This document shows, piece after piece, positions 1 through 52,637 of a stretch of 64,000 nucleotides of DNA (positions are counted from its first letter, which is position 1; each line of letters begins with the position of its first letter). This DNA comes from Antedon mediterranea (taxonomy: Eukaryota; Animalia; Echinodermata), in contig NC_092676.1 of NCBI RefSeq assembly GCF_964355755.1, positions 18,060,871-18,124,870 of the forward strand, written 5' to 3'. The notes beneath the pieces were generated by a model. The model was given only the letters and a program-made list of their open reading frames with translations, was not told where the DNA came from and ran no database searches. The translations under genes and the position numbers were made by a program.

Positions 1-162
1 TCGAAAATCAGTAATAATAAACTGCATTCATAATACATACGGTCACGGAAAAATATCACTTGGAATTCAACAAAAACTGAACAAAATAACAAGACAAGAA
101 AAGTGTGACTGCTACCAAGCGCCACCAGATACCACAATACTGTATGTACAAAACATACTTAC

Positions 163-6100: not shown

Positions 6101-7927
6101 TATTGATCCTCTATACCATAACATATGCAATCAATTGGACATTCTGTGGTTAAAACATAAATGTTAGATAAATATTTAAAAAAAATAGAACTTTACATAA
6201 GCATAGGGATGGTATTGTCCTGATTATGATAGATACGCCCTCCACAAAATGTGTATTTATTTTCATCTTTCTGGTTTTGTACCTTCTTCTTTCTAATTTT
6301 TTTTTTATATATATATTGTTTGAATTGATGGAAGCCAAAGTGAACCATGTTATATATCAAGTAACACAAGTAGACACTTAAGATATTAGATGGAGAAATG
6401 TCAATTGAGATGTTAATAACATTCTTGCATTAACAATGCTATTTTTATCTAAAAGACATTCTGATCACATGATTGGCCATAGAAACAGAAATTTAGCACA
6501 AAAAAAACAAAAAGAAATCGTCATACAGTAGATAATCAGACACAACACAACAGAAAAAAAATCATTTGAATATATCATTACATTTTAAATACATATTTTT
6601 TATTTTTGCTATGTTTTATTTATTCAGTTGAACATTCCATACCTTACCTTATACTGCATGCCAGTATAAAGGAAGTGTAGGTTAAACAGTAGTGTAGGTT
6701 GGAGACAGCATAACAAAAACAGAGTTGGATCATTAGATACCAGTTCAGGGATTTAAGAGTAAATATCAGTCATTAAATTGTATTAGAAGTTAGTAATAGA
6801 ACCACGAAAGAAATCAGTCAATACTAAATACGAGCATTAAGCAAGTATAAGGTTCATTAAACTTACTGATTTCACAATGAAGACCAACATATTTATCAGG
6901 ACAAACACATGTATTATTTGACATGTGACATGTACCTCCATTCTGACATGGATTGCTGTTACACATAGTATCTTCAGTTCCTAACAAAATAAAACAAACT
7001 GTTAAAGTGAGAATTACACACACCATCTTTGATTATAATATTTCTATATACCACAGCCTATAGGCCTACTTTACTATGTACAGTATATTCTAGTCAACTT
7101 AATAGACTTTTTCTTTGAACTCCATCTAAAAGAGGCAATTTCATTTTAATACATAAAAAAAGAAAGTATGGTAATTGAGTCTAAATTGCAAGTAGGCCTA
7201 CTTAAGTGATAACTTTGTCAAAGTGTAGATACTCAGAATGAATGAAAAATAAATGATGAAGAAACCCAAAAGAACTTTACATACTTTTCAATTCAATTCA
7301 ATTCAATTCAATTCAACGTAAACATTTATTTTCTTTCTTTCAATCAATAATAAAACAAATGAATAAGGTATTAAAAAAAAGTAATCCTATCCTTTATTTA
7401 AAGGTAATCAATATTACAGTAAATTGTACAATTCATTTTCCAAATAACAAAATAAAATGCTATAAAATAATAAACATAATTGATTGAAGACTAAAGTTTT
7501 AAGGGGTTATTCACCAATTAGAAATCTTTTTACCACTTATTTACGGTAGTCCAGTAAAAATTGTGAATTTACTACATAACAAGTAACTACTACATAACAA
7601 GTAACGACTACATAATAGACATGCATGTTATTGCTTAAACATAGTTATGGGACTTACAGATAATATGGTCAAACAAAACCTGCTAACCACAAACTTTTAT
7701 CTGTATAAATAACATCTTCCAATTTAAATTTCAAAGAAAACAATTTTGTTACAAAACTTTTGTAAAGAATATAAACAACACAAAAAAAAACATTTAAAAA
7801 ATTTGTTCTCAAACAGTCAATTAATCCTACTGCTGCTACACAATCAAAATAAATGAATCATACCATTTGTGGAACAACTACACAATTTGAATCCAACAAA
7901 AATTATAATGCACTGCAAGGTAAACAT
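163..7927 (-). CDS. Copy 0 of the receptor, 5' part (continues off the left edge)
   Basis: Signal peptide exon 7927-7864, EGF exon 6980-6867, LRRNT exon 6143-5999, LRR1 exon 3041-2970, and a 5'-truncated LRR cassette at 222-163 with an intact GTAAGT donor. Confidence 0.8.
243..1379 (-). mobile_element. Non-autonomous Helitron-like element
   Basis: Minus strand starts A|TCTATATATAAAT at 1379, like the element at 60123. The better-preserved homolog at ~34442 ends in a hairpin (ccgtgcggaacacagg) plus CTAG. Confidence 0.5.
1634..1904 (-). mobile_element. 5'-truncated CR1-like LINE 3' end
   Basis: Encodes TRGH...FSQRVINHWNSLPADVVNSETTNTFKNRID with a (CTAAA)n tail; absent at the homologous site ~36080. 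Confidence 0.85.
3373..3757. mobile_element. MITE-like element with terminal inverted repeats
   Basis: ctaacaacaggacgctgagcttgac at ~3373 is inverted against gtcgagctcagcgtcctgttgttag at ~3726-3750; the right end is deleted in unit 2. Confidence 0.55.
4245..5838. repeat. 67-bp minisatellite (~19 copies), intronic
   Basis: Unit aaagtactagacatctattagaggctaaaatactttgaactgtgttctgtttctataaacctgttgt; interrupted by a SINE. Confidence 0.95.
4413..4730 (+). mobile_element. tRNA-derived SINE
   Basis: A box TGGCCGAGCGG, B box GGTTCGAGGCT, stem gagtgagt/actcactc, unrelated body, (AAAC)n tail. Empty site gagacaaaaatac is seen in unit 2. Confidence 0.88.
6867..6980 (-). CDS. EGF-like domain exon (copy 0)
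   Basis: 114 nt, phase 1-1, six-Cys EGF pattern [31 protein letters not shown]. Confidence 0.9.
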
Positions 7928-16111: not shown

Positions 16112-16514
16112 ACATGTAGCAGTTAAAAACAAAGAGTGTATACAGGCCTACAAATGTGAACACATATTGTAAATATTACCTGACTAACATTAAAAAACCC
16201 AAATTTGTTTTAGCTGAAATATTTCAATTAAGACTGCTTAGCATCATCAAAAGCTCTGCAATCAAACACGCGCATGTTGCACTTATTTAATAATTACAGC
16301 AAACATAATAACAACAAAAAATATATATTAAAAGGTAGTGTATAACGGTTGCGATCCGAGTTGGTTCTAAACTGCCTCGGTCCAAAGTCAAGTTTAGGGG
16401 CGACTTAAACGGCTACCATATAAACTATAGTAAAATATTGCACTCATTAACATTTTTATCACACATGTTTTTTACAAGAAATATTCAATTGTTCTGTATG
16501 TAAGTGATGGACAA

Positions 16515-20185: not shown

Positions 20186-21170
20186 TTAACGGTTTGTTTT
20201 TTCGCTTGAACACGTATATATGATCGTGTACAGATACGGATTAACTGCCGAGTTGATCGGTAAAATGAAGGTTGCTGCCCAAACATATATTTCTGCAGGG
20301 ATATCCCAATGTTTAGTTTCCGAGCAAATTCCCATTAAAATGATGGGAAACCAGCAACAAAAATCTGTACCAATTATAAACACTAGCTTCCGTGCAATTC
20401 GCAACTGTTCTTCAAGGCTTTTCCTTCTATTAACAGTCGCTGATGATCTTTTCACAGAAAAAAATATTGTGAGATAACTAACGACCATGACCAAGAAACC
20501 GAAACCGTTAAATGCAATGAAGATAGCAGTGGCATACTCCCAGCCTGGTAAATGACTTCGAGTTAGCGGTAACGGAAGGCAGACACTCTGTTTACCATAG
20601 TAGTTCTCTCCAAAGTAAGGCAGGTCGATGAAGCTCAACTTGTTTGCAGCTACCGGTAAGAAACTGATAGCAGCAATAACAACCCAAGCAATGACGATGA
20701 CTATTTTGCATGTTTTACGACTGAGACGTCTAGTGTTAAAAGGACTAACAATGTTTACAGCCCGGTCGACGCTCATAACCATCAACGTAAACACCGAGCA
20801 TTCACTGGAAAGAGTAGAAATAGCACCTGCAAAACTGCAAGTGAAACTACTTTTCCAATATTCTAGAACTTCCGAGTATCTACCTCTATAGTGAATATCA
20901 GCCCCTGCAATAATTAGCAGATACATTGCCATAAGTAGATCAGAGATGGCAAGACTGGAGATCAGCATGGAATCAACAGTTTTCTCTTTATTGCAACACC
21001 TTGATATGAGAACAAGTGCATTGCCAATAATGGAGGAAACACCAATTACGAGCATCAACACCCTAAGCGATTTCCTTTTTAGTAAATCTTGGCATGATGC
21101 GAAAGCATCAGTGGGTTCACAGATCTCAATGTCACCAACAACACAACACAAATGGAAAAAATCTGAATAG
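20186..21170 (-). CDS. Terminal hinge + 7TM exon of copy A (rhodopsin-class, LGR/GRL101-like)
   Basis: ORF 20186..21151 extends to an acceptor at 21171 (tttcattcag). Motifs: YSDFFHLCC hinge, [29 protein letters not shown]; very short C-terminal tail. Confidence 0.95.
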
Positions 21171-24100
21171 CTGAATGAAAAGAAATAGGATAGTTATATA
21201 TTCATTACTGATAATTGTAAAGTGTAAATAGCTAATTGCTAATTTCAAAAAGTGTAAATAGCTAATTTAAACAAATTTAATATTAGCAATTTTTTTCTTG
21301 CCAGCATGTATTTATTATATGGAATTCTTTTTTGATCTGGAATACAACTTTTCCCCTTTTCAGCAGTACAGCTGGGGTCAACATTTTCTATCATAACTCT
21401 TTATCATTACAGGCCTATTACATTATTTTACCGGCCTTTTCACTGAGATTGAGAATTTCACATGTATGAATTTTTTTGATAACTTGTTAACAACTTGTTA
21501 CATTTGAAAATAAAGTGTATCTGTGAAATTTGTACTAAATGGCATTTAAATACAAAAATCAAAGGGGAACAACAGCTCCCATCACACCACCCTACATACA
21601 GCCATTTGCATTCATAATGTCAAATAAATTTACTTACAACTGTGTTAAATTTACCAACTCTTTAAAAGTCTTGTCTTCATAATCTTTCAAGTTGTTGTAT
21701 GTTAGGTTTCTGTAGGATAATAAATTCAGAATGATCATATTCATTTAATAATAACTTTAAATTCACATGTCATGAGGAAACTTTCTGAATGATTGAAATC
21801 AAAACAGTACTGGGTTTGGTTTACTAGCATTCCTGCTCCCAAAAGTCATCCATTCATAGAAGCACTGATGAAGAAAGTCTATCCATGGTGGCCATAGAAT
21901 GGTCCTGAAACATACTTTGGCTTTAGTTGATAGAAGTTTGAAACATTTTATTAGAAATAGAGTATTATGTAAGTTATAAACTTTGTGGCAATGACAATGT
22001 TTACAAAAAGCTGAATGTGCATTAGAGGCAAGAATACAAGCAGGTGTCTTACAACACAGATTATGAACTTACAGAATTAACAGTGATGAAGCAAATGGAG
22101 AAAATGCACCATCCTCTATGTTAGTTATAGAGTTGTTCTGTAACTGTCTGTTAACAAATTAACAACAACAATTATGATACTAAATTTAGTTATTTCAGGA
22201 CTGAAGATGATCAACTGCAATTGCCTTTATTGGTATTTACTGCTCTGTCATAGTACTATATTATTCAATGTAATCAACTAAAGTACATGTTTTAAAGATA
22301 CAGTATACTGTCCCACTGTAAAAATAAATTTACTATTAATCTTTGTTAAATATGCCATTCTAATGTCACATAATAGTAATCATCAGTCAACAAATTTTAA
22401 AATAAATAACAATTATTACTATCAACTATGATTAATGAATTAAGAGTATAACACAATACGTACAAAACATACTTACAATCTTTGCAAATTGTTCAATCCA
22501 TCAAATATACCAGCTGGTAAATTACTAATTTGGTTGTTTTCCAACAATCTGCAAAAACAAAAATAAACAACATTTAAAAGTGAAGTTTGACTACTTTATA
22601 TGCTACCCATCTGCAAAAATAAAATGACAACATTTAAAATTATTACTATCAACTATGATTAATGAATTAAGAGTATAACACAATACGTACAAAACATACT
22701 TACAATCTTTGCAAATTGTTCAATCCATGAAATATATCAGCTGGTAAATTACTAATTTGGTTGTTTTCCAACAATCTGCAAAAATAAAAATAAACAACAT
22801 TTAAAAGTGAAGTTTGTCTACTTTATATGCTACCCATGGTTTCAATATTTTGTTTTCTTTAGTTTATTTTAACATAATTTTGTATTCAACTTTTAAAATG
22901 TATCTATGATCTTGTTTATAAAAGAAAGTTGAAGAATTAATGTTTTTATTTAATATGATTAACTTAAATTAATTATTTCACAATAATTTTACAAATGTTA
23001 TAATAAATTGCAATTATTGCTGTTCATCATCATCACAAACACTGAACGTCATGTGACATAGTGCACTTTTAAGTCTTAAAAGACTTCTCCAATCAGAGAG
23101 ATTATTAGCCAAAGTGTACATAGACTTATTTATTTTTTCTTTTTGCATCATTTTCTATAATTTTTATCCATGTAGTTCTAGGTTATTCTCTTTTGCCATT
23201 GATTCAGATAGAGCTCCTTGTGCTGGGATATCAGAGTCTAGACAAAGAAGGTGTCCACACCATGTCAAGCGTCTTCTCTTTATAACTCTGTTCCATTTTT
23301 CCTCATGTGTGCTGTTATATAAATCTATATTTGTTATTATATTAGGCCATTTGGAATAATTAATGTTTAAGTTAAATGCCTTCAGTTGATTATGTTGCTA
23401 TTAACTATGATTAATGAATTGTGAGTAATAATAATGCAATAAGTACAAAACATACTTACAAGACTTGCAAATTGTTCAATCCATGAAATATATCAGCTGG
23501 TAAATTACTAATTTGGTTGTCATGCAAATATCTGCAAAAACAAAAATGAACAACATTTAAAAGTGAAGTTTGTCTACTTTATATGCTACCCATGGTTTCA
23601 CTATTTTGATTTCTTAAGTATATTTTAACATAATTTTTTATCCAACTTTTGGAATTTATGTATGATTATTTTGTTCAGGGTAAACTTAACATTGCAAGTT
23701 GAAACAGAATTCAGATCTTATAAAAGAGCACTGTGAATATGTCCATTAAATACAATAATTTGTTTCATTGTGGTTAAAATCAACACATCAAATATATTTG
23801 ATTTATATGAAAATAATGTTGAAAAATTTATGTTTTTTTGTTTAATATGATTAACTTAAATTAATCATTTCAAAATAATTTTACAAATGTTATAATAAAT
23901 TGCAATTATTGCTATTTATCATCATCACGAACACTGAACGTCATCTGACATAGTGCACTTTTAAGTCTTAAAAGACTTCTACAATCAGAGAGATTATTGG
24001 CCAAAGTGTGCATGGAATTATTTATTTTTTCTTTTCTATCATTTTTTATAATTTTTATCCATGTGGTTCTAGGTTGTTCTCTTCTGTCATTGATTCTGAT

Positions 24101-27100
24101 AGAGCTCCTTGTGCTGGGATATCGTAGTCTAGACTAAGAAGGTGTCCACACCATGTCAAGCGTCTTCTCTTAATCACTCTGCTCCATTTTTCCTCATGTG
24201 TGCTGTTATATAAATCTATATTTGTTATTATATTAGGCCATCTGGAATAATTAATGTTTAAGTTAAATTCCTTCACTTGATTTAATGTTGCTATCAACTA
24301 TGATTAATGAATTGTTAGTAATAATAATGCAATGAGTACAAAACATACTTACAAGTAATGCAAATTGTTTAATCCATCAAATATACCAGCTGGTAAATTA
24401 CTAATTTGGTTGTTCTCCAACAATCTGCAAAAATAAAAATGAACAACATTTAAAAGTGAAGTTTTACTACTTTATATGCTACCCATGGTTTCACTATTTT
24501 GTTTTCTTTAGTTTATTTTAACATAATTTTTTATCCAACTTTTGGAATTTATGTATGATTATTTTGTTCAGGGAACTTAACATTGCAAGTTGAAACAGAA
24601 TTCATATCTTATAAAAGAGAGCACTGTGAATATGTCCATTAAATACAATAATTTGTTTCATTGTGGTTAAAATCAACACATCAAAAATATTTGATTTATA
24701 TGAAAATAATGTTGAAAAAATAATGTTTTTTGTTTAATATGATTAACTTAAATTAATCATTTCACAATAATTTTACAAATGTTATAATAAATTGCAATTA
24801 TTGCTATTCATCATCATCACAAACAGGGCACTTAAGACTTCTCCAATCAGAGAGATTATTAGCCAAAGTGTACATAGACTTATTTATTTTTTCTTTTTGC
24901 ATCATTTTCTATAATTTTTATCCATGTGGTTCTAGGTTGTTCTCTTCTGTCATTGATTCAGATAGAGCTCCTTGTGCTGGATATCAGAGTCTAGACAAAG
25001 AAGGTGTCCACACCATGTCAAGCGTCTTCTCTTTATAACTCTGTTCCATTTTTCCTCATTTGTGCTGTTATATAAATCTATATTTGTTATTATATTAGAC
25101 CATCTGGAATAATTAATGTTTAAGTTAAATGCCTTCAGTTGATTATGTTGCTATTAACTATGATTAATGAATTGTGAGTAATAATAATGCAATAAGTACA
25201 AAACATACTTACAATCTTTGCAAATTGTTCAATCCATCAAATATATCAGCTGGTAAATTACTAATTTGGTTGTCATGCAAATATCTGCAAAACCAAAAAT
25301 AAACAACATTTAAAAGTGAAGTTTGACTACTTTATACTACCCATAGTTTCACTATTTTATATTCTTTAGTTTATTTTAACATAATTTTTTATCCAACTTT
25401 TAGAATTTATGTATGATTATTTTTGTTCAGTGAAAACTTGTAACATTGAAAGCTGAAACAGAATTCAGATCTTACAAAAAGAGCACTGTGAATATGTCTA
25501 TTAAATACAACAATTTGTTTCATTTTGGTTAAAATCAACATATCAAATATATTTGATTTATATGAAAATAATGTTGAAAAATTAATGTTTTTGTTTAATT
25601 TGATTAACTTAAATTAATCATTTCACAATTATTTTACAAATGTTATAATAAATTCCAATTATGCTATTCATCATCATCATGAACACTGAACGTCATGTTA
25701 CATAGTGCACTTAAGATTTCTCCAATCAGAGAGATTATTGGCCAAAGTGTACATAGACTTATTTGTTCTATAATTTTTATCCATGTGGTTTTAGGTCGTG
25801 TCTTGACTTTTCTAATTGATTCAGATAGAGTTCATTGCGCTGGGATATCGTAGTCTAGATGAAGAAAGTGTCCACACCATGTCAAGCGTCTTCTCTTTAT
25901 AACTCTGTTCCATTTTTCTTCATTTGTGCTGTTATATAAATCTATATTTGTTATTATATTAGACCATCTGGAATAATTAATGTTTAAGTTAAATGCCTTC
26001 AGTTGATTATGTTGCTATTAACTATGATTAATGAATTGTGAGTAATAATAATGCACTAAGTACAAAACATACTTACAAGTATTGCAAATTGTTCAATCCA
26101 TGAAATATATCAGCTGGTAAATTACTAATTTGGTTGCCCCACAAAGATCTGCAAAAATAAAAAATGAACAACATTTAAAAGTGAAGTTTGTCTACTTTAT
26201 ATGCTACCCATAGTTTCACTATTTTGTTTTCTTAAGTATATTTTAACATAATTTTTTATCCAACTTTTGGAATTTATGTATGATTATTTTGTTCAGGGAA
26301 CTTAACATTGCAAGTTGAAACAGAATTCATATCTTATAAAAGAGAGCACTGTGAATATGTCCATTAAATACAATAATTTGTTTCATTGTGGTTAAAATCA
26401 ACACATCAAAAATATTTGATTTATATGAAAATAATGTTGAAAAATTAATGTTTTTTGTTTAATATGATTAACTTAAATTAATCATTTCAAAATAATTTTA
26501 CAAATGTTATAATAAATTGCAATTATTGCTATTTATCATCATCATCACGTACACTGAACGTCATGTGACATAGTGCACTTTTAAGTCTTAAAAGACTTCT
26601 CCAATCAGAGAGATTATTAGCCAAAGTGTACATAGACTTATTTATTTTTTCTTTTTGCATCATTTTCTATAATTTTTATCCATGTGGTTCTAGGTTGTTC
26701 TCTTCTGTCATTGATTCAGATAGAGCTCCTTGTGCTAGGATATCAGAGTCTAGACAAAGAAGGTGTCCACACCATGTCAAGCGTCTTCTCTTTATAACTC
26801 TGTTCCATTTTTCTTCATTTGTGCTGTTATATAAATCTATATTTGTTATTATATTAGGCCATCTGGAATAATTAATGTTTAAGTTAAATGCCTTCAGTTG
26901 ATTATGTTGCTATTAACTATGATTAATGAATTGTGAGTAATAATAATGCAATAAGTACAAAACATACTTACAACTGTAGCAAATTGTTCAATCCATGAAA
27001 TATATCAGCTGGTAAATTTCGAATTTCATTACCATACAACCATCTGAAAAAAATAAAAAATTTACCACATTTAAAAGTGAAATTTGTCTATTTTATCACC

Positions 27101-30100
27101 CATGCTTTTACTAAATTTGTTTTCCTTCGTTTATTTTAACATACTTTTTAAGGCAAATTTGTATGATAATTTATGTATGATAATTTTGTTCAGTTCTTTT
27201 TGTTATTATATTAGGCCATCTGGAATGATTAATGTTTAAGTTAAATGCCTTCAGTTGATTATGTTGCTAATTGCAATCCATGAAATATATCAGCTGGTAA
27301 ATTACTAATTTGGTTGCCCCACAAAGATCTGCAAAAATAAAAAATGAACAACATTTAAAAGTGAAGTTTGTATACTTTATATTACCCATAGTTTCACTAT
27401 TTTGTTTCTTTAGTTTATTTAACATAATTTTGTATCCAACTTTTAAAATTTATGTATGATCTTGTTTAGAGAAAGTATATAAAAAGAAAGTTGAAAAATT
27501 AATGTTTTTATTTAATTTGATTAACTTAAATTAATCATTTCACAATTATTTTACAAATGTTATAATAAATTGCAATTATTGCTGTTCATCATCATCACAA
27601 ACAGGGCACTTAAGACTTCTCCAATCAGAGAGATTATTAGCCAAAGTGTAAATAGACTTATTTATTTTTTCTTTTCTATCATTTTCTATAATTTTTATCC
27701 ATGTGGTTCTAGGTTGTTCTCTTCTGTCATTGATTCAGATAGAGCTCCTTGTGCTGGGATTTTGTAGTCTAGACAAAGAAGGTGTCCACACCATGTCAAG
27801 CGTCTTCTCTTTATAACTCTGTTCCATTTTTCTTCATTTGTGCTGTTATATAAATCTATATTTGTTATTATATTAGGCCATCTGGAATAATTAATGTTTA
27901 AGTTAAATGCCTTCAGTTGATTATGTTGCTATCAACTATGATTAATGAATTGTGAGTAATAATAATGCAATATGTACAAAACATACTTACAATCCTAGCA
28001 AATTGTTCAATCCATGAAATATATCAGCTGGTAAATTACTAATTTGGTTGTTATCCAAATATCTGCAAAAATAAAAATAAACAACATTTAAAAGTGAAGT
28101 TTGACTACTTTATACTACCCATAGTTTCACTATTTTATATTCTTTAGTTTATTTTAACATAATTTTTTATCCAACTTTTAGAATTTATGTATGATTATTT
28201 TTGTTCAGTGAAAACTTGTAACATTGAAAGCTGAAACAGAATTCATATCTTACAAAAAGAGCACTGTGAATATGTCTATTAAATACAACAATTTGTTTCA
28301 TTTTGGTTAAAATCAACATATAAAATATATTTGATTTATATGAAAATAATGTTGAAAAATTAATGTTTTTGTTTAATTTGATTAACTTAAATTAATCATT
28401 TCACAATTATTTTACAAATGTTATAATAAATTCCAATTATGCTATTCATCATCATCACGAACGTCATGTGACATAGTGCACTTAAGATTTCTTCAATCAG
28501 AGAGATTATTGGCCAAAGTGTACATAGACTTATTTGTTCTAAAATTTTTATCCATGTGGTTTTAGGTCGTGTCTTGACTTTTCTCATTGATTCAGATAGA
28601 GCTCCTTGTGCTGGGATATCAGAGTCTAGACAAAGAAGGTGTCCACACCATGTCAAGCGTCTTCTCTTTATAACTCTGTTCCATTTTTCCTCATTTGTGC
28701 TGTTATATAAATCTATATTTGTTATTATATTAGACCATCTGGAATGATTAATGTTTAAGTTAAATGCCTTCAGTTGATTATGTTGCTATCAACTTTGATT
28801 AATGAATTGTGAGTAATAATAATGCAATATGTACAAAACATACTTACAATCCTAGCAAATTGTTCAATCCATGAAATATATCAGCTGGTAAATTACTAAT
28901 TTGGTTATTAGCCAAATATCTGCAAAAATAAAAAATGAACAACATTTAAAAGTCAAGTTTTACTACTTTATATGCTACCCATGGTTTCACTATTTTGTTT
29001 TCTTTAGTTTATTTTAACATAATTTTGTATCCAACTTTTAGAATTTATGTATGATTATTTTTGTTCAGTGAAAACTTGTAACATTGAAAGCTGAAACAGA
29101 ATTCATATCTTACAAAAAGAGCACTGTGAATATGTCTATTAAATACAACAATTTGTTTCATTTTGGTTAAAATCAACATATAAAATATATTTGATTTATA
29201 TGAAAATAATGTTGAAAAATTAATGTTTTTGTTTAATTTGATTAACTTAAATTAATCATTTCACAATTATTTTACAAATGTTATAATAAATTCCAATTAT
29301 GCTATTCATCATCATCACGAACACTGAACGTCATGTGACATAGTGCACTTAAGATTTCTTCAATCAGAGAGATTATTGGCCAAAGTGTACATAGACTTAT
29401 TTGTTCTATAATTTTTATCCATGTGGTTTTAGGTCGTGTCTTGACTTTTCTCATTGATTCAGATAGAGCTCCTTGTGCTGGGATATCAGAGTCTAGACAA
29501 AGAAGGTGTCCACACCATGTCAAGCGTCTTCTCTTTATAACTCTGTTCCATTTTTCCTCATTTGTGCTGTTATATAAATCTATATTTGTTATTATATTAG
29601 GCCATCTGGAATAATTAATGTTTAAGTTAAATGCCTTCAGTTGATAATAGTGGGGTTCACATGGAACTATGTCTAGAAGAAGTGGATTTAACAATTTTCT
29701 ACTAACTGGACTAACCTTGACAAATCCCGTTCTTTGGTACAATTATGTCTAGTTAATTAAATTTCATAAAATCCTGGTATTGGAGATTTTAAATGCTATT
29801 TTATGTAAAAAAAAATCATCTATTTCTTTTATTTATCCCGTATGTTGTTTACTTTTAACTTCTGATTACAAACAATTGGTCATTTTACTTTCTGTGTTAA
29901 ATTTTGTATTCTATTTTTTAGTATAGTAAATATTTTAGGCCTACCATCTTCTAATATCTATTAGACGTCTGTCCTCGTCAGACATAGTTCATTTAATTTT
30001 TTAGGACATTTTATGGGGGTACACAATGAAGAATGACCATATTCTTTGCAATTCAAATGTTAAATATGAAAATGAAATGGGTTAAAAAATTCTTCAATTT

Positions 30101-33100
30101 CATTGGTGCAAATGAGGCTAAAGGCCACCCGCTGGGTTGTTAATTGGATTACCCTCATAAAATAACTGGCTATCCTTGGATTTACTTCTAAATCCAAGCA
30201 GCAATAATTGTCCAGAAAAAAAACATCATCCGGACATAATTGAGCGTTCACATCCAAATTATGGCGAGATCATGTAGATAATCTACTTAAATTAACTAGC
30301 CATCTCCTACGAAGCTCTTCCATACACACTTCGAGAGCGATCGTCAGCTGGTGCTGTCCTTGTTGGTATAGACCGCTTAGTGGGCCTAGCTGGTCGGGGA
30401 GCCGCTGGTCGGTGGTGTTTCCGTCGTGTAACATTGGGCTCAAATTCTTCGTCAATGAGTAAAATAATGGTCGTCAGGAGAAGGCATATTTCGGCAGGAT
30501 TATCGGCGTTAAGAGGCATAAGGTTTGTCGCAAGGATAAGCAGTGTATATTAGGCCATTTGGAATGATTAATGTTTAAGTTAAATGCCTTCAGTTGATTA
30601 TGTTGCTATCAACTTTGATTAATGAATTGTGAGTAATAATAATGCAATAAGTACAAAACATACTTACAAGTATTGCAAATTGTTCAATCCATGAAATATA
30701 TCAGCTGGTAAATTACTAATTTGGTTGCCCCACAAATATCTGCAAAAATAAAAAATGAACAACATTCAAAAGTGAAGTTTGACTACTTTATATGCTACCC
30801 ATAGTTTCACTATTTTGTTTCTTTAGTTTATTTAACATAATTTTTTATCCAACTTTTAAAATTTATGTATGATCTTGTTTAGGGAAAGTATATAAAAAGA
30901 AAGTTGAAAAATTAATGTTTTTATTTAACATGATTAACTTAAATTAATCATTTCACAAAAATTTTACAAATGTTATAATAAATTACAATTATTGCTATTC
31001 ATCATCATCACAAACAGGGCACTTAAGACTTCTCCAATCAGAGAGATTATTAGCCAAAGTGTAAATAGACTTATTAGGTTATATGCATTATCATGCATAT
31101 AACCTCTTGATTCTGTCAAAATCTTTATTTATTTATCTATTTATTCTTTCCTTAGCACTATTTTGTCCGTGAATTATCTTGATATCAGTTTCATCTATCT
31201 AAGTCAATTTTTCAGAGTATATTCCTTATGGCCAGGAATCGATGTGGTTATGTTTTCAGGGTGCGCAATCAAACATTACGCGGTCTACGCGCGATTTAAC
31301 GAAATCACGTTTGTAATCATATCTTCACAAGCATGAATCACTTTTAAACAAAATTTGGTACTCATAAATTTCAGGTCATATTTCATAATATGGCAATACA
31401 ATTACGTGCGTAGCGCATATAACGCATGCGTACGCGCGCTTAAAATGTTGAAAATTGTCAGAATTTATTTTCGATGAAATTAGAGTACGTTTCAGGCAAT
31501 TTCAAGCGTTTAAAAAATTGCCATGAGTGCGCAGATTTTTGCACGCGCACTGCGCGTCAAACGTTAATGCGCACTTTTTTTGTCCGATTACTGTTGTATA
31601 ACCTTTCTTTAATAATATCATCATATTTTATTCACTTTTCAACACGAAACAGCGTTATACGAGCACGTCTAAAGTGACAGTCTACGCACGTGTAAGTTAA
31701 CAAAATGGTGAAAATATGCTAAATTTTTAAATTAATATATATCGTTAGAATGCTCGGGAACACCTATTTTTTATTTCATTTTCTTGAAGTGTATGTATCA
31801 TATGTATGATTTATTATGAAATTAGGAGAAAAAAAGTTGATTAAGTCATCATTAATGGTATATTAAATAAAAAAAAATTAATTATGACAATCAATCAAAT
31901 TATAACATTTTCTTAGGCCGAAATAACAAACTTAACATTAACTTTCTTCCTTAAGAAGTTCATATATTAAAGTTAAAAGTATATAGTTTGACAGTGCATC
32001 ATTTTTTTAAATTTTTAAAAATGTCATCATAGTAAAACATTATAATTCATTGCGGTATGTAATAATCTATCTGCACCAAAGTGGTTACTGCATAGTAAAT
32101 ACACGGAGGAATCTTTCCATAACTTTAGTCAGTTGTGTATGGCTCGATGGTCTTTGCTCGTGTCTATGGCATTCAAGGTACCGAGATCGAGTCTCACCTT
32201 GGGAAACGAAATAAGATTTTTTTTTTTATTATCTGTATTGTTTGTTCAAATTTATTTCTTAGTGTATAGATTATACACATGATTTGTAATGAAATCTAGA
32301 TAAAAAGTAACTTATGTCTTTATTAATATGTAACAACAAATGTGGTTTATGAAATTTTACGCAGAGGGATCTTTGATCGGATTGTGATACCGGCTATTGT
32401 ATTCGCGTTAGCAAGATCCTATCATATATTATAAATAATTAAAGATTCTGAGAAAAAAAAATCAATCAATATATCTTAAATCAATCAATTATCTTTATTT
32501 AAATCAATGCATATAACCTATAATTCGTCATAGTGACGAATTAAATCTAGTTTATTTTTTCTTTTCTATCATTTTCTATAATTTTTCTTCTCTTTATAAC
32601 TCTGTTCCATTTTTCCTCATTTGTGCTGTTATATAAATCTATATTTGTTATTATATTAGGCCATTTGGAATAATTAATGTTTAAGTTAAATGCCTTCAGT
32701 TGATTATGTTGCTATCAACTTTGATTAATGAATTGTGAGTAATAATAATGCAATATGTACAAAACATACTTACAACCATAGCAAATTGTTCAATCCATCA
32801 AATATATCAGCTGGTAAATTACTAATTTGGTTGTCATCCAAATATCTGCAAAAAAACAAAAATAAACAACATTTAAAAGTGAAGTTTGAATACTTTATAT
32901 GCTACCCATGGTTTCACTATTTTGTTTTCTTAGTATATTTTAACATAATTTTTTATCCAACTTTTGGAATTTATGTATGATTATTTTGTTCAGGGAACTT
33001 AACATTGCAAGTTGAAACAGAATTCATATCTTATAAAAGAGAGCACTGTGAATATGTCCATTAAATACAATAATTTGTTTCATTGTGGTTAAAATCAACA

Positions 33101-36100
33101 CATCAAAAATATTTGATTTATATGAAAATAATGTTGAAAAATTAATGTTTTTTGTTTAATATGATTAACTTAAATTAATCATTTCAAAATAATTTTACAA
33201 ATGTTATAATAAATTGCAATTATTGCTATTTATCATCATCATCACGTACACTGAACGTCATGTGACATAGTGCACTTTTAAGTCTTAAAAGACTTCTCCA
33301 ATCAGAGAGATTATTAGCCGAAGTGTACATAGACTTATTTATTTTTTCTTTTCTATCATTTTCTATAATTTTTATCCATGTGGTTCTAGGTTGTTCTCTT
33401 CTGTCATTGATTCAGATAGAGCTCCTTGTGCTGGGATATCAGAGTCTAGACAAAGAAGGTGTCCACACCATGTCAAGCGTCTTCTCTTTATAACTCTGTT
33501 CCATTTTTCTTCATTTGTGCTGTTATATAAATCTATATTTGTTATTATATTAGGCCATCTGGAATAATTAATGTTTAAGTTAAATGCCTTCAGTTGATTA
33601 TGTTGCTATTAACTATGATTAATGAATTGTGAGTAATAATAATGCAATAAGTACAAAACATACTTACAATCCTTGCAAATTGTTCAATCCATGAAATATA
33701 TCAGCTGGTAAATTACTAATTTGGTTGTTATCCAAAGATCTGCAAAAACAAACAACATTTAAAAGTGAAGTTTGACTACTTTATATGCTACCCATAGTTT
33801 CACTATTTTATATTCTTTAGTTTATTTTAACATAATTTTTTATCAAACTTTTAGAATTTATGTATGATTATTTTTGTTCAGTGAAAACTTGTAACATTGA
33901 AAGCTGAAACAGAATTCATATCTTACAAAAAAAATATTGAACATTTATCAATTCATGAAATATATTTGTTGGTAAATTACTAATTTGGTTGCTAGTCAAC
34001 CATCTGCAAAAATAAAATGACCAAAATTTAAAATTTAAATTTCTCTACTTTATGTTAGACATAGTTTCACTATTTAGTTTTCTTTATTTTATCTTCAAAT
34101 AATAAACATTTTTTATAACTTTTTAACAGAATTCATATCTTAAAAAAGAGAACACTGTGAAAATTTGTTTCACTTTTGCTAAAACCAATGCCTTAAATAT
34201 ATTTTATTTACATGAAAAGAGTGTTGCAAAATTTTCTTTAATCATTTCACAATTAATATGCAATTTTTTTTTTTTGCGCAACTATTTCCGTATTAATGAA
34301 TTTAGAGTAATAATAACTATTATATTATAAAACACACGAATACAACGTTTGCATCAAATACATCAGCTGGGCATTTCCATGAGAAATGGACAAAAATGTA
34401 CATGACCTGAAAATTTAATTCTCAAAATATCATATATGTTACTAGCAGTAACCTGTGTTCCGCACGGTCTTTTTCTGCCTTAATATGTTGTTATATACTT
34501 TGCATGGACAAGTATAATAACAACGCACTTTGATAAAAGTACTCTGACAAATTATTAAAATGAAAACGAATTGTATCACGAATAAAATTCAGAACTACTG
34601 TATTTACGGCCATTGGTTTGTTATACACTATCCCTTCACTTTAAAATACTATGTAGCTGTGCTTTGTAAATTAGATGATGCGCACAAACACATAACGAAA
34701 GTATAAAAATGACAAACTATATTATTTTAGGTGTTTTTCGTGTTGTATTAATTATTTGATACGTACAGATAAAAAAAAAAGTGGACAAAAATCGAATGAA
34801 ACACACATTGCTGCAGAAACACGAATTGTTAAGTTTTATTTTATATATATTGTTATATTTTTTTTATTTTTATTTCATTGGTTTTGATATTTTGCAATTT
34901 TTTTCAATGGCAGATTTGTTACGTACTTGCTACTTTTGTAATTAAATTTTGGTCTACCAGAAGCCGTGCTCTGCATGGTTTGTCTACCTTAATAATAATT
35001 TGCATGGCATGATTATTAAGTATAATAAAAGTGTACTTTTCCCGGCCACAATATTTCTTTTCGTACATAAGTTGGGGACCCCTCATGAGACGTCACAAAA
35101 TCAACATGAATATTCCTTAATCATGTCCATAAGCTGTGACGTTAGAAATGAGCTAACTGGGCTTCGAATTCTATGAGCAAGTTCTTTTTACTTTATAGTG
35201 ACAGAGATTATTTAGAGGGTTAGGTTTAGTTATATTTAGAAACTTAAGTAGTTTGGCTATCTTTCACATAAGGGGCCAAACTTCCGTACAAAAAAAAAAT
35301 CGCTTCCCAGCCCCTGACAAATTGGTTTTTTTTTAAACAAACAAATTGTCAACAATACAATTCGGAACTATGTACGGCCTGCCGCCATTGATTTTGTTAT
35401 ACACGGAGTATTCCTTTACTTTGAAATATCTGTAAGCTACAAAATGAAATACTGGATTTGGGGTGCGCCTCAGAAAGTGACAACGTGCATGAGCGGAACA
35501 GACTTGAACGTCCATATCAGGCACGTTGAAGTCTGTCAATCAGTCGGCAGAGATTAAAACATCATAAAATATGAATTAATAATAATAATAACGATTTACA
35601 CACGTGGGCTTACGCTTTTTTTGCTTATATAAAAAAAAAATGTTAGCCTAGCGTTGCATGCTCCAAGCACGGTTCCAAGCATGCTTACCGACGCAACATT
35701 TGGTGTCCTATTGTTACATCGGTAAATAACAGCAAATGCACCTCAGCGCAAACAAAACCAATGCTCTTAATTTTACAAAAATAGTAAAATAATAATGTTT
35801 AATATACTAATTAACAATGTCCTAAACAAAACTATTGTGGCATAATGTTTACCCTGGCTACGAGCCATAACAAGATTGGATTGTTGTCGGTGTCACATCC
35901 TAGCACGTTTTGTTACATCCAGTGATTTGTAAAAGTCGGAGGCTGGATGGAAATCTATAGTGTTACTGTTATCGCAGTTCAAGAATTGATTCTCCATGGA
36001 GAGGGAACCAACATGATGGCGGCTGCAATCGACCAATCAGATATGCGATATGCCCTACGCAGTACGCACTACGCCTGTGTTGAGCATATCTGCATGAGAA

Positions 36101-39100
36101 CGATGCGCAACGCAGCGCGTTAAGCATATGAACGCGAACGCATTCTATATGATCCTCGTCAAAGGTCAAAATTAGAAGTTTTTTGACAGTTTTATGATTT
36201 TTATTACATTAGAACAAATACAAACAACTACTTTGCGAGTAAATTGAGACCACAATTATCACTTTTTGACCAGTGGTTGATGAGATATTCATATGGCCAA
36301 TTTCTTGACCAGTGGTCAGAAAAGAGTTTCTGTCCACTTTTGGCAACAAATTACCCATTAGAGTGAATAGAAATATGGGTCTTCTGAGTAGTTTGGCACA
36401 AAAATATTCCAATACACCCAGTAGTTACCAAGTTACGCAGAGTCCTGACTTTGACCATATTGACCTTTTGGCCCCTGTACTGACCAAGCATTCCAATTTT
36501 TTTTCGGCCAACAGCAAAAAATTGATTTGTATAGATATAAGGAAGCAAAAAAACATTGTTAACATACTTTGCTAGAGGGTGCACGTAAACCCTTTCTGGC
36601 TCTCCAACTAAATATATTACCAATGGCATTTAACCGATTATTTAAATTTTGTGGTAAATTACTCTCATACTATTTTTAATTGGTTTATTTATTTTTTTGG
36701 CAGAAAGAGGCCAACAACACTGTATTGCATTGTCAGCTGGTATGATATAGCTTATTACTTTATTGGTCTTAAAATCAAAGAGGCAATCAATAACTTTTCA
36801 AGATTGGATTCGAGACAATTATAGTTTCATGAAAAGGAAAATACACTACTTACTGCAAATAGAAAAACAAATTATGCAGTTCAGGGCTATTGTTAGGATA
36901 GATAAATATGAACTTCTTAGAGTGTTAAAATATAGAAAATTAAAATGTTCAAATAATAACCTCAGTTGACAGTTTACCATTTTACTTTTAACAAAGTGAA
37001 TCACCTGGCTTATATTTTAGGTCACATCTAAGAACTCTGATACTTCATGCAAAACAACACATACAAAACAACACATACAAACTGAGTGAAAACATTCTGT
37101 TGTTTTAGAGAAAAAAAATTATTGTTATAACACACTATAATAGGTAAATTTAAACTTACATCCATTGAAGACTTGATAAATTATTATCCTTAAAGATATT
37201 TAAAGCCCTCTCATCATACTCTTGCAGCCACCTATGAAATAATAAAATAAAACAATTTGTCAAAAACTAAACAAATTTATTATTGTCTTGAAAACTGATC
37301 ATGATGATGAGCCTGATATTTTTGTGGGGACACAAACATCAGTTCCATCATTACAATTATGGACAATTTAATATTGGTGGTATAATACATACAAGAACAA
37401 TTGAAAACTATCTTTGGGCATCTTCTTATTAACTATTTATCATTTGGGAAAGTTAAATGTTGATTTTATTTCACATACTTTTTCCAATGATAATGAAATA
37501 TGAGAGGGTAAAAACTTACCTGTATAATTAGTGTTCGCTGTAAATTCAGTTTACTTATTAATTACACATACTTAGGCAATCTAACTAACAACAGGACGCT
37601 GAGCTTGACTTGCCAACATATGCTATCATAACGAACGTGTATTGAAATGATGTCAACCTTCATTTTGACAATGTTGACATTAAAATGTATAATAAAATCA
37701 GATGATGTTTATACTCACTTTATTGTTATGTTTCACCAAAAGCTGCCTCTTATATACATACCTTAATGTACACATTTATTAATTTATATTGAAAGTGGGA
37801 AGGGTTTTGTATATTAAAGCAAGGCTATCAATAAGTGTGCGGATTATGGATGGTACCGTTTTGGTACCCACAGATCAGTCAAGCGTATATTTTCTGATAT
37901 TACATAACATCAGATAATTATCAGATATTATTCTCTAATTCTTTAATTTGTATTTATATTGGAAACACAACTAGTAATTCTTTTAATATTAAGCCTATAT
38001 TATATGATTTGAGAAATTGTAGGAAAGAAACTTGCTGTTGGTGAATTAGCAATACTGAAGGAAACTAGCAGTAAGAAGACATTGAACATCTTAGTTAGAA
38101 TAGCCAAGGTAGTAAATTAATGTATATTATAAAGACATCAAAAGTGTCAAAAAAGAACCCTGAGTTGAATAGAACAATCAGGCTTTCAACTCATGAACAT
38201 TTTCAATAAAACTATAAAACATTCACAACACATTATATTCTTAAATAAATTTAGATTAATTAATCTGTCACTTAAATGTTGAATCGATGTGCATGTTGTA
38301 AAGTACTAGACATCTATTAGAGACAAAAATACTTTGATCTGTGTTCTGTTTCTACAAACCTGTTGCAAAGTACTAGACATCTATTAGAGACAAAAATACT
38401 TTGATCTGTGTTCTGTTTCTATAAACCTGTTGCAAAGTACTAGACATCTATTAGAGACAAAAATACTTTGATCTGTGTTCTGTTTCTATAAACCTGTTGT
38501 AAAGTACTAGACATCTATTAGAGACTAAAATAATTTGAATTGTGTTATGTTTCTATAAACCAAAGTGATTAAAGCACTTGACACAACCAACAACCAAGCC
38601 CACAAAATTCACTAAATATTTGTAGAATAATGGAAATGGAAACTATTTCAAAATTTTGATTGATTGTAAATTTACCTTTATGTGTTGCATGAATGCTAGT
38701 ACTAGGAGTGTCAAGAATCATTAGCACTGTATACTTACATGAATTCTAAAGGCTTATAATTATTCATCTTCGTGATCAATGCTGTTATGTCACTCCATGG
38801 TACTGTTCTCTTCTCACATATGATGTCAAAATAATAATTGCTATATTGATCATCTATATCATAACATATGCAATCAATTGGACATTCTGAGGTTAAAACA
38901 CAAATGTTAGATAAATATTTGAAAAAATAGAACTTTACATAAGAAGCATAGGGATGGTATTGCCCTGATTATGTGTATAGATGGAAGCCAAATTGAACCA
39001 TGTTATTTATCAAGTAACACAAGCAGACACTGAAGATATTAGGAAGTGGAGAAATGTCAATTGAGATGTTAACATTCTTGCTATTTTTTTGCCATTCTGG

Positions 39101-40316
39101 TTGGCCATAGAAACAGAAATTGAGCTAAAAAAAACAATGTTAAAGTGAAATCCTTAATCAGACATTAAACAAAAAATCATTTGAATATCATTACATTTCA
39201 AATATATATTTTTTATTTTTGCTGTTTTATTTATTCAGTTGAAAATTCCATGGACACCTTATACTGTATGCCAGTATAAAGGAAGTCATTAAATTGTATT
39301 AAAAGTTAGTAATAGAAACCACGAAAGAAATCAGTCAATACTAAATACGAGCATTAAGCAAGTATAAGGTTCATTAAACTTACTGATTTCACAATGAAGA
39401 CCAACATATTTATCAGGACAAACACATGTATCATTTGACATGTGACATGTACCTCCATTCTGACATGGATTGCTGTTACACATAGTATCATCAGTTCCTA
39501 ACAAAATAAAACAAACTGTTAAAGTGAGAATTACACACACTATCTTTGATTATAATATTTCTATATACCACAGCCTATACTTTACTATACAGTATATTCT
39601 ATTCAAGTTAATAGACTTTTTCATTGAATTCAATCTAAAAGAGCCAATCTCATTTTAATACAAAAAAAAGAAAGTATGGTAATTGAGTCTAAATTGACAT
39701 GTAGGCCTACTAAAGTGATAACTTTGTCAAAGTGTAGATACTCAGAACGAATGAAAAGTAAATTATGAAGAAACTCAAAAGAACTTTACATACTTTATTT
39801 AAAGGTAATCAATATTACAGTAAATTGTACAATTCATTTTCCAAATAACAAAATAAAATGCTATAAAATAATAAACGTAATTGATTGAAGACTAAAGTTT
39901 TAAGGGGTTATTCACCAATTAGAAATCTTTTTACCACTTATTTACGGCTAGTCCAGTAAAAATTGTGAATTTACTACATAACAAGTAACGACTACATAAT
40001 AGACATGCATGTTATTGCTTAAACATAGTTATGGGACCTACAGATAATATGATCAAACAAAACCTGCTAACCACAAACTTTTATCTGTATAAATAACATC
40101 TTCCAATTTAAATTTCAAAGAAAACAATTTTGTTATAAAACTTTTGTAAAGAATATCAAACAACACAAAAAAAAACATTAAAAAAAATTTGTTCTCAAAC
40201 AGTCGATTAATCCTACTCATGCTGCTACACAATCAAAATAAATGAATCATACCATTTGTGGAACAACTACACAATTTGAATCCAACAAAAATTATAATGC
40301 ACTGCAAGGTAAACAT
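20186..40316 (-). CDS. Complete multi-exon EGF-LRR-7TM receptor, GRL101/LGR-like GPCR (copy A, ~797 aa)
   Basis: Exons with AG/GT borders and consistent phase: 40316-40253 (signal peptide [21 protein letters not shown]), 39497-39384 (EGF), 38886-38739 (LRRNT, CPIDCIC...C), 37231-37160 (LRR1). Then 12 x 72-nt cassettes: 33739-33668, 32845-32774, 30739-30668, 28919-28848, 28062-27991, 27043-26972, 26148-26077, 25284-25213, 24424-24353, 23531-23460, 22775-22704, 22548-22477. Then 22147-22073 (75 nt), 21709-21638 and 21170-20186 (7TM). Sum is 2394 nt = 798 codons including the stop. Confidence 0.85.
27259..27328 (-). pseudogene. Donor-less LRR pseudo-exon
   Basis: Acceptor intact; reads [23 protein letters not shown] deletion removed the exon 3' end and the GT donor. 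Confidence 0.8.
29390..29640 (-). mobile_element. RTE-like non-LTR retrotransposon 3' ORF fragment (representative copy; recurs in most cassette introns)
   Basis: Translation [11 protein letters not shown]...[13 protein letters not shown]...RPKTTW matches the C-terminal pattern of RTE-clade ORFs (W..I.N..L, RRL.W.GH, RP..TW). Confidence 0.75.
31074..32550 (+). mobile_element. Helentron/Helitron2-like non-autonomous element
   Basis: 5' hairpin aggttatatgcat/atgcatataacct; the same motif is inverted near the 3' end; then stem-loop taattcgtca-tag-tgacgaatta and CTAG. Inserted without TSD into gactta|tttatt. Confidence 0.8.
33927..34003 (-). pseudogene. Damaged LRR exon ([23 protein letters not shown]); native donor lost
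   Basis: The homolog in copy B (63578-63649) is intact. Here the exon is fused via an A8 run to an intronic cttac, giving 77 nt (out of frame). Confidence 0.7.
38295..38560. repeat. 67-bp minisatellite (4 copies)
   Basis: Homolog of 4245-5838, much shorter. Confidence 0.92.
39384..39497 (-). CDS. EGF-like domain exon (copy A)
   Basis: 114 nt, phase 1-1, [31 protein letters not shown]. Confidence 0.9.
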
Positions 40317-43300: not shown

Positions 43301-44286
43301 TTTGTTTAGTTCTTAACAGTTCGTGTATTGTAGGGGGTGTCTATAAAACTAAGATATCTTGGGTCTTACTTTTTCTTAGACAGTTCTTAGTTTTCTAGAC
43401 ACCCTATTTTAGGGGCCATCATGAGACAAACTTTTGCTTCTAATGAGAAGGTACCAGTTATTATTATTCACTGAATAAATATGGAATAAATAATTAATCC
43501 ACTTTTACTTTTCAGATTATTGGCATGAAAGAAACTGTAAATTAACCAAACGCTCTAAAACCTACCAACACTCAGTGTGTGTTTACCTGTATGTTTGCCT
43601 TTATGCTTTCCTGAATAGTAACATTGTAGGTTTGATAATTTTCTAGTCGATTGATTATTATGAAAATTAACCTGTTATATCATTCAAAGGTTGTAGATAT
43701 AATTATATTGCTGAATTTAATATTATGTTTTTAATAATTGATACTGTAATGTAATGGGATACAAAAAAACACCAATCATGATAAACAGGCAGAAATGCTA
43801 TGTTTAGTAAGTAGGTGGCAAGTAATATTAATAATTGGTAGACGTGACGAAATAGAGAAATCTCCAAGAAATGTTAATTGTTTTGTAACTTGGCAATAGT
43901 GATGCAGTTTCCCTGAAATAATAAAACTATGAGTTGAATTGAATCTGTTAATAAATAATCTGTAGTAATTCATTGATAATAGTTTATGATGATGGGCTGT
44001 TAAATTGCAAAATCGCAGAGTGTGGACACCCACCTCTTTTTCTACCTTTTGATTAAAAAAAACATTTTACAAAAACCCCGACATCATTGCCTACTCTCTG
44101 GCTCTCTGTCTATCTGTCTGAGATAGAATGTCCATCCGTCCGTCCCTTTTGTTAGCCTGTTAGTTGGCCACTGTGTATGCTTTCATTAATCATTTTGCTG
44201 TGATCGATTCGATGCATGTAATGTCCCAACTAAATGTATTTTATTGGCAAAATGTTTAATTAAAACAATCATCTAAACCTCACTAT

Positions 44287-51652: not shown

Positions 51653-52637
51653 TTAACGGTTTGTTTTTTCGCTTGAACACGTATATATGATCGTGTACAG
51701 ATACGGATTAACTGCCGAGTTGATCGGTAAAATGAAGGTTGCTGCCCAAACATATATTTCTGCAGGGATATTCCAATGTTTAGTTTCCGAGCAAATTCCC
51801 ATTAAAATTATGGGAAACCAGCAACAAAAATCTGTACCAATTATAAACACTAGCTTCCATGCAATTCGCAACTGTTCTTCAAGGCTTTTCCTTCTATTAA
51901 CAGTCGCTGATGATCTTTTCACAGAAAAAAATATTGTGAGATAACTAACGACCATGACCAAGAAACCGAAACCGTTAAATGCAATGAAGATAGCAGTGGC
52001 ATACTCCCAGCCTGGTAAATGACTTCGAGTTAGCGGTAACGGAAGGCAGACACTCTGTTTACCATAGTAGTTCTGTCCAAAGTAAGGCAGGTCGATAAAG
52101 CTCAGTTTATTTGCAGCTACCGGTAAGAAACTGATAGCAGCAATAACAACCCAAGCAATGACGATGACTATTTTGCATGTTTTACGACTGAGACGTCTAG
52201 TGTTAAAAGGACTAACAATGTTTACAGCCCGGTCGACGCTCATAACCATCAACGTAAACACCGAGCATTCACTGGAAAGAGTAGAAATAGCACCTGCAAA
52301 ACTGCAAGTGAAACTACTTTTCCAATATTCTAGAACTTCCGAGTATCTACCTCTATAGTGAATATCAGCCCCTGCAATAATTAGCAGATACATTGCCATA
52401 AGTAGATCAGAGATGGCAAGACTGGAGATCAGCATGGAATCAACAGTTTTCTCTTTATTGCAACACCTCGATATGAGAACAAGTGCATTGCCAATAATGG
52501 AGGAAACACCAATTACGAGCATCAACACCCGAAGCGATTTCCTTTTTAGTAAATCTTGGCATGATGCGAAAGCATCAGTGGGTTCACAGATCTCAATGTC
52601 ACCAACAACACAACACAGATGGAAAAAATCTGAATAA
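51653..52637 (-). CDS. Terminal hinge + 7TM exon of copy B
   Basis: 985 nt, same length as in copy A and nearly identical. Amino-acid changes seen in the ORF track: E->Q, R->W, D->N. Confidence 0.95.

Follow-up and report, generated by a model that had tools for sequence, protein, structure and literature searches.

Tandem LRR-7TM receptor genes of the crinoid Antedon mediterranea, with duplicated phase-2 repeat exons that vary at the predicted binding face

Organization of the locus

The window, i.e., the whole 64,000-nucleotide (nt) stretch analyzed here (NC_092676.1, positions 18,060,871 to 18,124,870, assembly GCF_964355755.1 of Antedon mediterranea), contains a minus-strand receptor gene in which an EGF exon and a leucine-rich repeat (LRR) N-cap exon are followed by 17 exons of LRR type and by a single exon, free of introns, for the hinge and the seven-transmembrane (7TM) domain (Table 1). 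At least three tandem copies of this EGF-LRR-7TM gene were found in the window (the 3' part of copy B, copy A, and the 5' part of copy C), and self-comparison displayed a tandem arrangement of ~33 kb with a duplication identity of 95-98%. The LRR domain of these genes consists of recently duplicated 72-nt phase-2 exon-intron units that were likely diversified in the germline, with likely diversifying selection on five residues of the concave face.

The 7TM exon of copy A was 99% identical to XP_071956901.1, a RefSeq GRL101-like protein of A. mediterranea, while the last 640 residues of a second RefSeq protein of this species, XP_071956026.1, were identical to the spliced copy A model from exon A3 to the stop. 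The first 18 residues of XP_071956026.1 seemingly derive from a repeated intronic piece, and the EGF, N-cap, L1 and A2 exons were omitted from it. Splice joints were read from contigs of two runs, X5 (another sample with the same organism code, presumed RNA) and X9 (an unlabelled run of a relative), neither of which is recorded as RNA. The limits of one X9 contig matched the EGF exon exactly, with 102 other letters 5' of the exon. A Pfam scan of the N-cap exon gave no match.

Table 1. Coordinates of the exons of copy A and of the two neighboring partial copies
Feature	Position in window	Strand	Remarks
EGF-like exon, copy A	39384..39497	-	114 nt, phase 1-1; Pfam EGF, E=1.3e-5
LRR N-cap exon, copy A (CPxxCxC)	38739..38886	-	148 nt, phase 1-2; frame open with neighbors
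L1, divergent first LRR exon	37160..37231	-	72 nt, phase 2-2
A1x, damaged LRR exon	33927..34003	-	donor deleted; 77 nt to next GT; intact counterpart B1 (63578-63649)
LRR exon A2	33668..33739	-	exon scan, spliced frame
LRR exon A3	32774..32845	-	exon scan, spliced frame; in RefSeq model
LRR exon A4	30668..30739	-	exon scan, spliced frame, RefSeq model; A3-A4-like junction in run X5
LRR exon A5	28848..28919	-	exon scan, spliced frame, RefSeq model
LRR exon A6	27991..28062	-	exon scan, spliced frame, RefSeq model
A7x, inactivated LRR exon	27268..27328	-	3' end and donor deleted; left out of RefSeq model
LRR exon A8, variant type NEIRN	26972..27043	-	spliced frame, RefSeq model; nearest unit B8
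LRR exon A9	26077..26148	-	exon scan, spliced frame, RefSeq model
LRR exon A10	25213..25284	-	exon scan, spliced frame, RefSeq model
LRR exon A11	24353..24424	-	exon scan, spliced frame, RefSeq model
LRR exon A12	23460..23531	-	spliced frame, RefSeq model; nearest unit B7
LRR exon A13	22704..22775	-	exon scan, spliced frame, RefSeq model
LRR exon A14	22477..22548	-	227-bp tandem duplicate with A13; A14-like end joined to P in run X5
Exon P	22073..22147	-	75 nt, phase 2-2; splice joints in runs X5 and X9
Exon Q, last LRR	21638..21709	-	72 nt, phase 2-2; splice joints in runs X5 and X9
Hinge and intronless rhodopsin-type 7TM exon	20186..21170	-	Pfam 7tm_1, E=8e-32; spliced in X5 and X9
Paralog B, 3' part	51653..63649	-	9 intact LRR exons B1-B9 in another order; remnant near 59790; P, Q, 7TM
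Paralog C, 5' part	143..6980	-	EGF, N-cap, L1; LRR exon (143-221) without acceptor and start

Exon phase and splice junctions

A first-pass annotation of this DNA had described every LRR exon of the array as 72 or 75 nt long with phase-2 introns. Between 21638 and 37231, this held for 15 of the 17 exons of LRR type (L1, the 12 canonical exons of A2-A14, P and Q), all with AG/GT ends, and failed for A1x and A7x. Spliced together, the intact exons gave a single frame open into the 7TM exon (776 codons), whose sole stop was terminal.

The intron was placed by the same annotation after nucleotide 2 of the codon for the middle Leu of LxxL|xLxxN. In copies A and B, every one of the 20 canonical exons displayed this split codon (TT|A, Leu); Ile, Met or Phe was encoded at the other junctions. 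The predicted supply of two variable residues by the upstream exon and three by the downstream one was recovered as well, the variable codons being exon codons 22 and 23 upstream and 1, 3 and 4 downstream. In an AlphaFold model built from the single sequence, reliable over the LRRs only (pLDDT ~75-92, under 50 for the 7TM part), beta-strands lay across the junction Leu, and the strand proper took in roughly a single residue from upstream, the split Leu and, downstream of it, 3-4 more (e.g., E41-45 and E65-70). The flank ttttgcag preceded 11 of 12 canonical exons in copy A and 7 of 8 in copy B, and the flank gtaagtatgttttgtac was found at 12 of 12 and 7 of 8, respectively; the near-identity of splice flanks thus applied to the canonical exons, L1, P and Q having other ones. 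Phase 2 is in itself ordinary, and the splitting of the strand is likewise a known trait.

Variation at the binding face

Variation among the 20 canonical exons was confined to the five codons of the concave face, where 14 of 15 nucleotides varied against 8 of 57 elsewhere (Fisher p=1.4e-8). Pairwise diversity (pi) reached 0.46 at the face, compared with 0.032 in the remaining exon sequence, 0.059 in introns (11 introns of standard length, 650-950 nt, chosen out of 23) and 0.064 at framework synonymous sites; diversity at the face thus exceeded either of the last two values ~7-8-fold. Face codons accumulated 23 extra amino-acid states for 4 synonymous ones, and the framework 6 for 2. A mutation hot spot at the exon edges was considered and rejected, because the Leu codon standing between hypervariable codons 1 and 3 never changed (TTG in 20/20 canonical exons). 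Diversifying selection on the five concave-face residues is therefore a likely reading of the sequence pattern.

Face-biased variation was also displayed by three Antedon proteins of other subfamilies, each with its own repeat consensus (heterozygosity 0.63-0.73 at the face against ~0.30 for the rest), and was more extreme in the gene of copy A (0.69 against 0.15).

The N-cap exons of copies A and C (5999-6143 in C) differed by 10%, with 10 of 12 changed codons being replacements and one codon gap in addition. This difference sits in a block of ~88% identity, while the nearby intron differed by 1%; the block would seem to be either mosaic or under selection.

Unit duplication and exchange between paralogs

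Whole introns were ~94% alike, and not merely at their ends. Intron diversity ranged from 0.011 to 0.114 per bin; over all 20 exons it was 0.043 in the 20 bases after the donor and 0.106 in the 20 columns that lead up to the acceptor. Of the 21 introns next to canonical exons, 13 contained the same inserted piece; it resembles the 3' end of a long interspersed element (LINE) with a (GAT)n tail, a likeness that Pfam did not confirm. As the introns are alike throughout and most of them share this insert, exon and intron were copied together as whole units, recently, which also accounts for the near-identical splice flanks. Interchangeable splice sites, previously singled out as a special property of the array, are thus a by-product of unit duplication.

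Copies A and B carried 12 and 8 canonical exons, respectively (B having B1 in addition), yet their 7TM exons differed at only 12 of 985 nt (1.2%). Nearest units crossed between the paralogs, as for A12 and B7 (0.026) and for A8 and B8. Exon starts tracked the upstream intron (r=0.36, p=0.0015; 19 units, B3 being left out owing to a downstream insertion), while exon ends were linked neither to the downstream intron (r=-0.02), nor to their own start (r=0.13, p=0.09), nor to the start of the next exon (r=0.01, 17 pairs). This pattern fits frequent germline exchange, though repeated mutation could add to it. Since the paralogs differ in number and order of repeats and swap units, germline shuffling, together with likely diversifying selection, is the reading that we favor, and the earlier proposal that shuffling makes new junctional surfaces agrees with these germline data.

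Damaged exons

Exon A1x, read to the next GT, introduces a frameshift when included, and an in-frame alternative donor was looked for in it and not found. Exon A7x, deprived of its donor, reads into a stop. With both donors deleted, not every subset of exons stays in frame. Exon remnants were also contained in copies B and C, so that dead exons occurred in all three copies. At the deletion join of A1x lies a run of eight T (33927-33934); one more T would give 78 nt, in frame, and a sequencing error in this run would change the intactness of copy A.

Proposed origin of the array and points against it

We infer that recently duplicated exon-intron units likely diversify in the germline through unequal crossover and gene conversion. 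Phase and in-strand position would be an old trait of LRR genes that allows whole units to be gained and lost in frame, and a crossover within an intron would bring together an upstream and a downstream half-strand that are new to each other. Splicing of each allele would probably yield mostly one main isoform, dead exons being skipped, and the putative ligand is probably variable and external (non-self or a chemical cue) rather than a fixed hormone.

Several points weigh against this interpretation. The Nei-Gojobori ratio of nonsynonymous to synonymous differences (pN/pS) in face codons was only 1.1 (0.47/0.42), and 0.82 in copy B; pS was likely inflated by codons hit several times, and selection on the face keeps the status of a likely inference. 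A full-length product of copy A requires either that A1x be skipped or that the T run hold a one-base assembly error, and for this reason copy A may be a pseudogene. Constitutive splicing was deduced from few contigs of another sample, whose genome possibly differs, and contigs lose rare variants. The start of an exon compared with its own end gave r=0.13 (p=0.09), and the four-gamete failures (198 of 350) may also arise by repeated mutation. The ligand class of the receptor is a prediction.

Splicing and combinatorial potential

Contigs of X5 and X9 joined 21170 to 21638 and 21709 to 22073 with GT-AG ends. A 1453-nt X5 contig ran unbranched from one A14-like LRR end through P and Q into the 7TM exon. 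Among the matches listed (12 of 13 rows), X5 provided four LRR-LRR junctions; read by hand, one equaled the germline neighbor pair A3-A4, three carried face codons absent from the 20 exons of the window, and none was a skip between window exons. At the 3' end of the array, LRR exons are thus used in series in these contigs, in which rare skips may be lost and which display further allelic or paralog variation in addition. For 33560-45500, where intronic repeats dominated the matches, the contigs supported the limits of the EGF exon only.

The strongest competitor, though an unlikely one in our judgment, is that combinatorial exon skipping adds a large, regulated or stochastic isoform repertoire per gene to the germline variation. 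The arithmetic allows it: each of the 4096 combinations that can be drawn from the 12 intact exons was open and distinct, with 40 distinct new strand sequences possible. The first-pass claim that any subset stays in frame is correct for these 12 exons and breaks down with the frameshift of A1x and the stop of A7x; likewise, its claim that each skip creates a new strand was true of 9 out of 12 skips of a single exon and of 69 among all 78 skips, relative to the germline order of A, the others recreating germline strands. Copy A can be translated only with A1x and A7x left out, and exon skipping by the splicing machinery may thus already take place; moreover, the first intron bases after the donor were somewhat more conserved than the intron mean (0.011 against 0.059, 11 introns). 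LRR splice variants are reported for ROCOs (PMC11378527), NLRP3 (PMC6642158) and RXFP1 (PMC7196478). Against such a repertoire stand the absence of skips among the four X5 junctions, the unbranched 1453-nt contig and the RefSeq model XP_071956026.1, which carries A3-A14 in germline order and has no isoform in its cluster. Mutually exclusive use of the Dscam1 type was not seen in X5 and X9, whose LRR-LRR junctions were serial, and a minus-strand self-BLAST of 22001-37300, in which shorter pairings lie beyond reach, revealed no docking/selector complementarity but only short palindromes (one of 30 nt and an AT-rich one of 34 nt that occurred in three introns). The identity of the flanks is accounted for by whole-unit duplication, and the known cases comprise few isoforms, the RXFP1 variant without exons 12-13 having lost ligand binding (PMC7196478). 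The Dscam-like potential seen at first pass is thus real as arithmetic; its use as a mode of splicing appears unlikely.

In a related gene of Anneissia japonica (P0157 and P0161), the RefSeq isoforms X1 and X2 were set apart by a single LRR of 24 residues, which hints that one-exon skips may occur elsewhere in the family.

Decay, somatic rearrangement and assembly

It appears improbable that the array is simply an unstable, partly decaying repeat, with variation reflecting relaxed constraint at exposed positions and no selection for new specificities. Dead exons in all three copies, the frameshift of A as assembled, the lack of the first cassettes in C and a face pN/pS near 1 speak for decay. 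However, neutrality does not yield a ~7-8-fold excess of face diversity over introns and framework synonymous sites, stops were absent from 20/20 canonical exons and from both 7TM exons, and spliced contigs were obtained from two organisms.

Rearrangement of the array in somatic DNA into clonal, VLR-like receptors is very improbable: the 24-residue crinoid repeats, with their variable concave face, appear similar to the VLR modules of lampreys, high unit identity favors recombination, and somatic rearrangement has also been put forward for Ectocarpus, as an untested hypothesis (PMC3341825), but the germline genes give complete receptors by ordinary splicing, the exons with intact splice sites lie inside the gene rather than as flanking donor cassettes, the exon scan of the window found no inverted LRR exons, and germline events account for all differences seen. 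Equally slight is the chance that part of the difference in copy or repeat number is an assembly artefact (haplotypes placed in tandem or a mis-joined array): although the window is largely a ~33-kb duplication at 95-98%, which is hard to assemble, and contig depths were ambiguous on copy number, the junction from a 3' end to the next 5' start was present twice, and the tandem duplication is therefore real, three of the four members of the RefSeq cluster of near-identical proteins lie on one chromosome, A-type and B-type variants both occurred in the DNA run X1, and A and B, if they were alleles, would display exactly the allelic cassette variation that germline diversification predicts.

Other features of the window

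A 227-bp tandem duplication (22411-22837) gave rise to A13 and A14, with a spare acceptor near 22610. Between the tandem genes lies a 55-bp satellite with ~51-52 copies each at 13301-16112 and 46889-49753. A 67-bp intronic tandem repeat counted 16.5 copies in C (4733-5838) and 4 in A (38294-38561). A reverse-transcriptase fragment (44277-44972; Pfam RVT_1, E=2e-14) belongs to a block upstream of copy A that is absent from copy C. The intron between B2 and B3 contains an insertion (58150-59052) with a 130-codon open stretch that resembles a retroelement fragment but had no convincing Pfam match.

Receptor family

XP_071956026.1 (P0148) combined the Pfam domains 7tm_1 and LRR_8 that define LGRs, and the top Foldseek matches of the model were LGR4, its 7TM part being of low confidence. 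In a 7TM tree of 45 rows picked from 162 fetched proteins (midpoint root, outgroup on long branches), the gene fell inside a 22-row crinoid clade (100/99) with separate expansions in Antedon (16 rows) and Anneissia (6 rows). Members of this clade had no LDLa annotation, many models being partial, and the clade was nested (100/98) among LDLa-bearing GRL101-like receptors of Antedon and Anneissia. Many crinoid models in the clade look 5'-truncated. In copy A the EGF exon precedes the N-cap, and no LDLa was found in the model starting at EGF (exons 5' of EGF and a signal peptide were not located). By 7TM grouping, the receptor is thus predicted to be GRL101-like, i.e., a type C2 LGR in the classes described in PMC11863921.

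Comparison with known systems

Arthropod Dscam1 and the lamprey VLRs share with the crinoid gene arrays of similar modules and variable binding residues. In contrast to both, the crinoid exons stand in series, and no mutually exclusive choice, docking site or incomplete germline gene of the lamprey type was found, splicing alone yielding a complete open frame.

Brown-algal ROCO LRR-GTPases also encode one LRR per 72-bp phase-2 exon, with selection and diversification on the concave face, splice variants, exon shuffling and inactivated exons in introns; they form tandem clusters with birth and death, in which near-identical paralogs differ in the LRR domain, and analogies with Dscam and VLR are already drawn for them (Zambounis 2012, PMC3341825; Teng 2024, PMC11378527). 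The combination of traits that the first-pass annotation called unusual has thus been published. The crinoid gene is not a member of the ROCO family but an animal membrane receptor with a rhodopsin-type 7TM domain instead of ROC-COR; its introns split the binding strand itself, inverted exons were not found in its array, and splice variants of it are hypothetical.

GRL101 and other type C2 LGRs, including the SudRes2 cluster of Biomphalaria, have in common with the crinoid gene an LRR ectodomain, a Cys hinge and a tandem cluster of variable gene content. A snail schistosome-resistance region contains 12 GRL101-like genes, the validated variant lying in a neighboring gene (PMC12297450), and a starfish GRL101-like gene is found in sensory tentacles (PMC6267866). 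The crinoid gene differs by its EGF exon, by the LDLa not found before the LRRs, by homogenized LRRs of variable number and by a lineage-specific expansion, whereas one GRL101 gene is given for each ambulacrarian species studied in PMC8286064.

Frame-preserving one-repeat exons also occur in human NLRP3 and other NLRs (Hoss 2019, PMC6642158), in gonadotropin receptors, whose LRR introns are in phase 2 (as cited in PMC11378527), and in RXFP1 (PMC7196478). As in the crinoid gene, exon borders lie at a fixed place of the beta-sheet, and some skipping occurs, stochastic in NLRP3 (PMC6642158). The human repeats are, however, old and diverged with few isoforms, while the crinoid units are ~94% identical, introns included, with a hypervariable face. 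Fungal HNWD/NLR genes likewise show concerted evolution within and between paralogs, variation in repeat number and, in each repeat, diversification at a few positions of the binding surface (Dyrka 2014, PMC4986451), but in WD, ANK or TPR repeats of cytosolic NLRs, instead of LRRs with an exon each in a receptor coupled to G proteins (GPCR).

The architecture and the Dscam analogy (algal ROCO) and the in-strand borders of LRR exons (human NLRs) are therefore already in print. Among titles and abstract openings, with few subscription journals covered, we found no publication on the crinoid family or on homogenized LRR exons in a GRL101-like gene, nor one describing the LRR-exon pattern in a clade of GRL101-like origin that expanded in crinoids.

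Significance for crinoid receptor biology

In crinoids, whose immune and chemosensory genetics are little known, the locus provides a GPCR-based candidate for a hypervariable recognition receptor, and it brings the repeat-shuffling strategy of algal ROCOs and fungal NLRs to an animal membrane receptor. Whether invertebrate LRR arrays diversify by splicing or somatically was asked for Ectocarpus and left open there; the crinoid gene is expressed, fits one long amplicon and has five variable positions per repeat, and hence offers a cheap test of splicing against somatic diversification. A bolder possibility, to which we give little weight, is that in feather stars a GRL101-like GPCR turned into a variable-recognition family whose strands are assembled across exon junctions and whose repertoire is widened per cell or individual by skipping or somatic recombination. 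If true, an invertebrate deuterostome would possess an LRR repertoire that is anticipatory and feeds straight into G-protein signaling.

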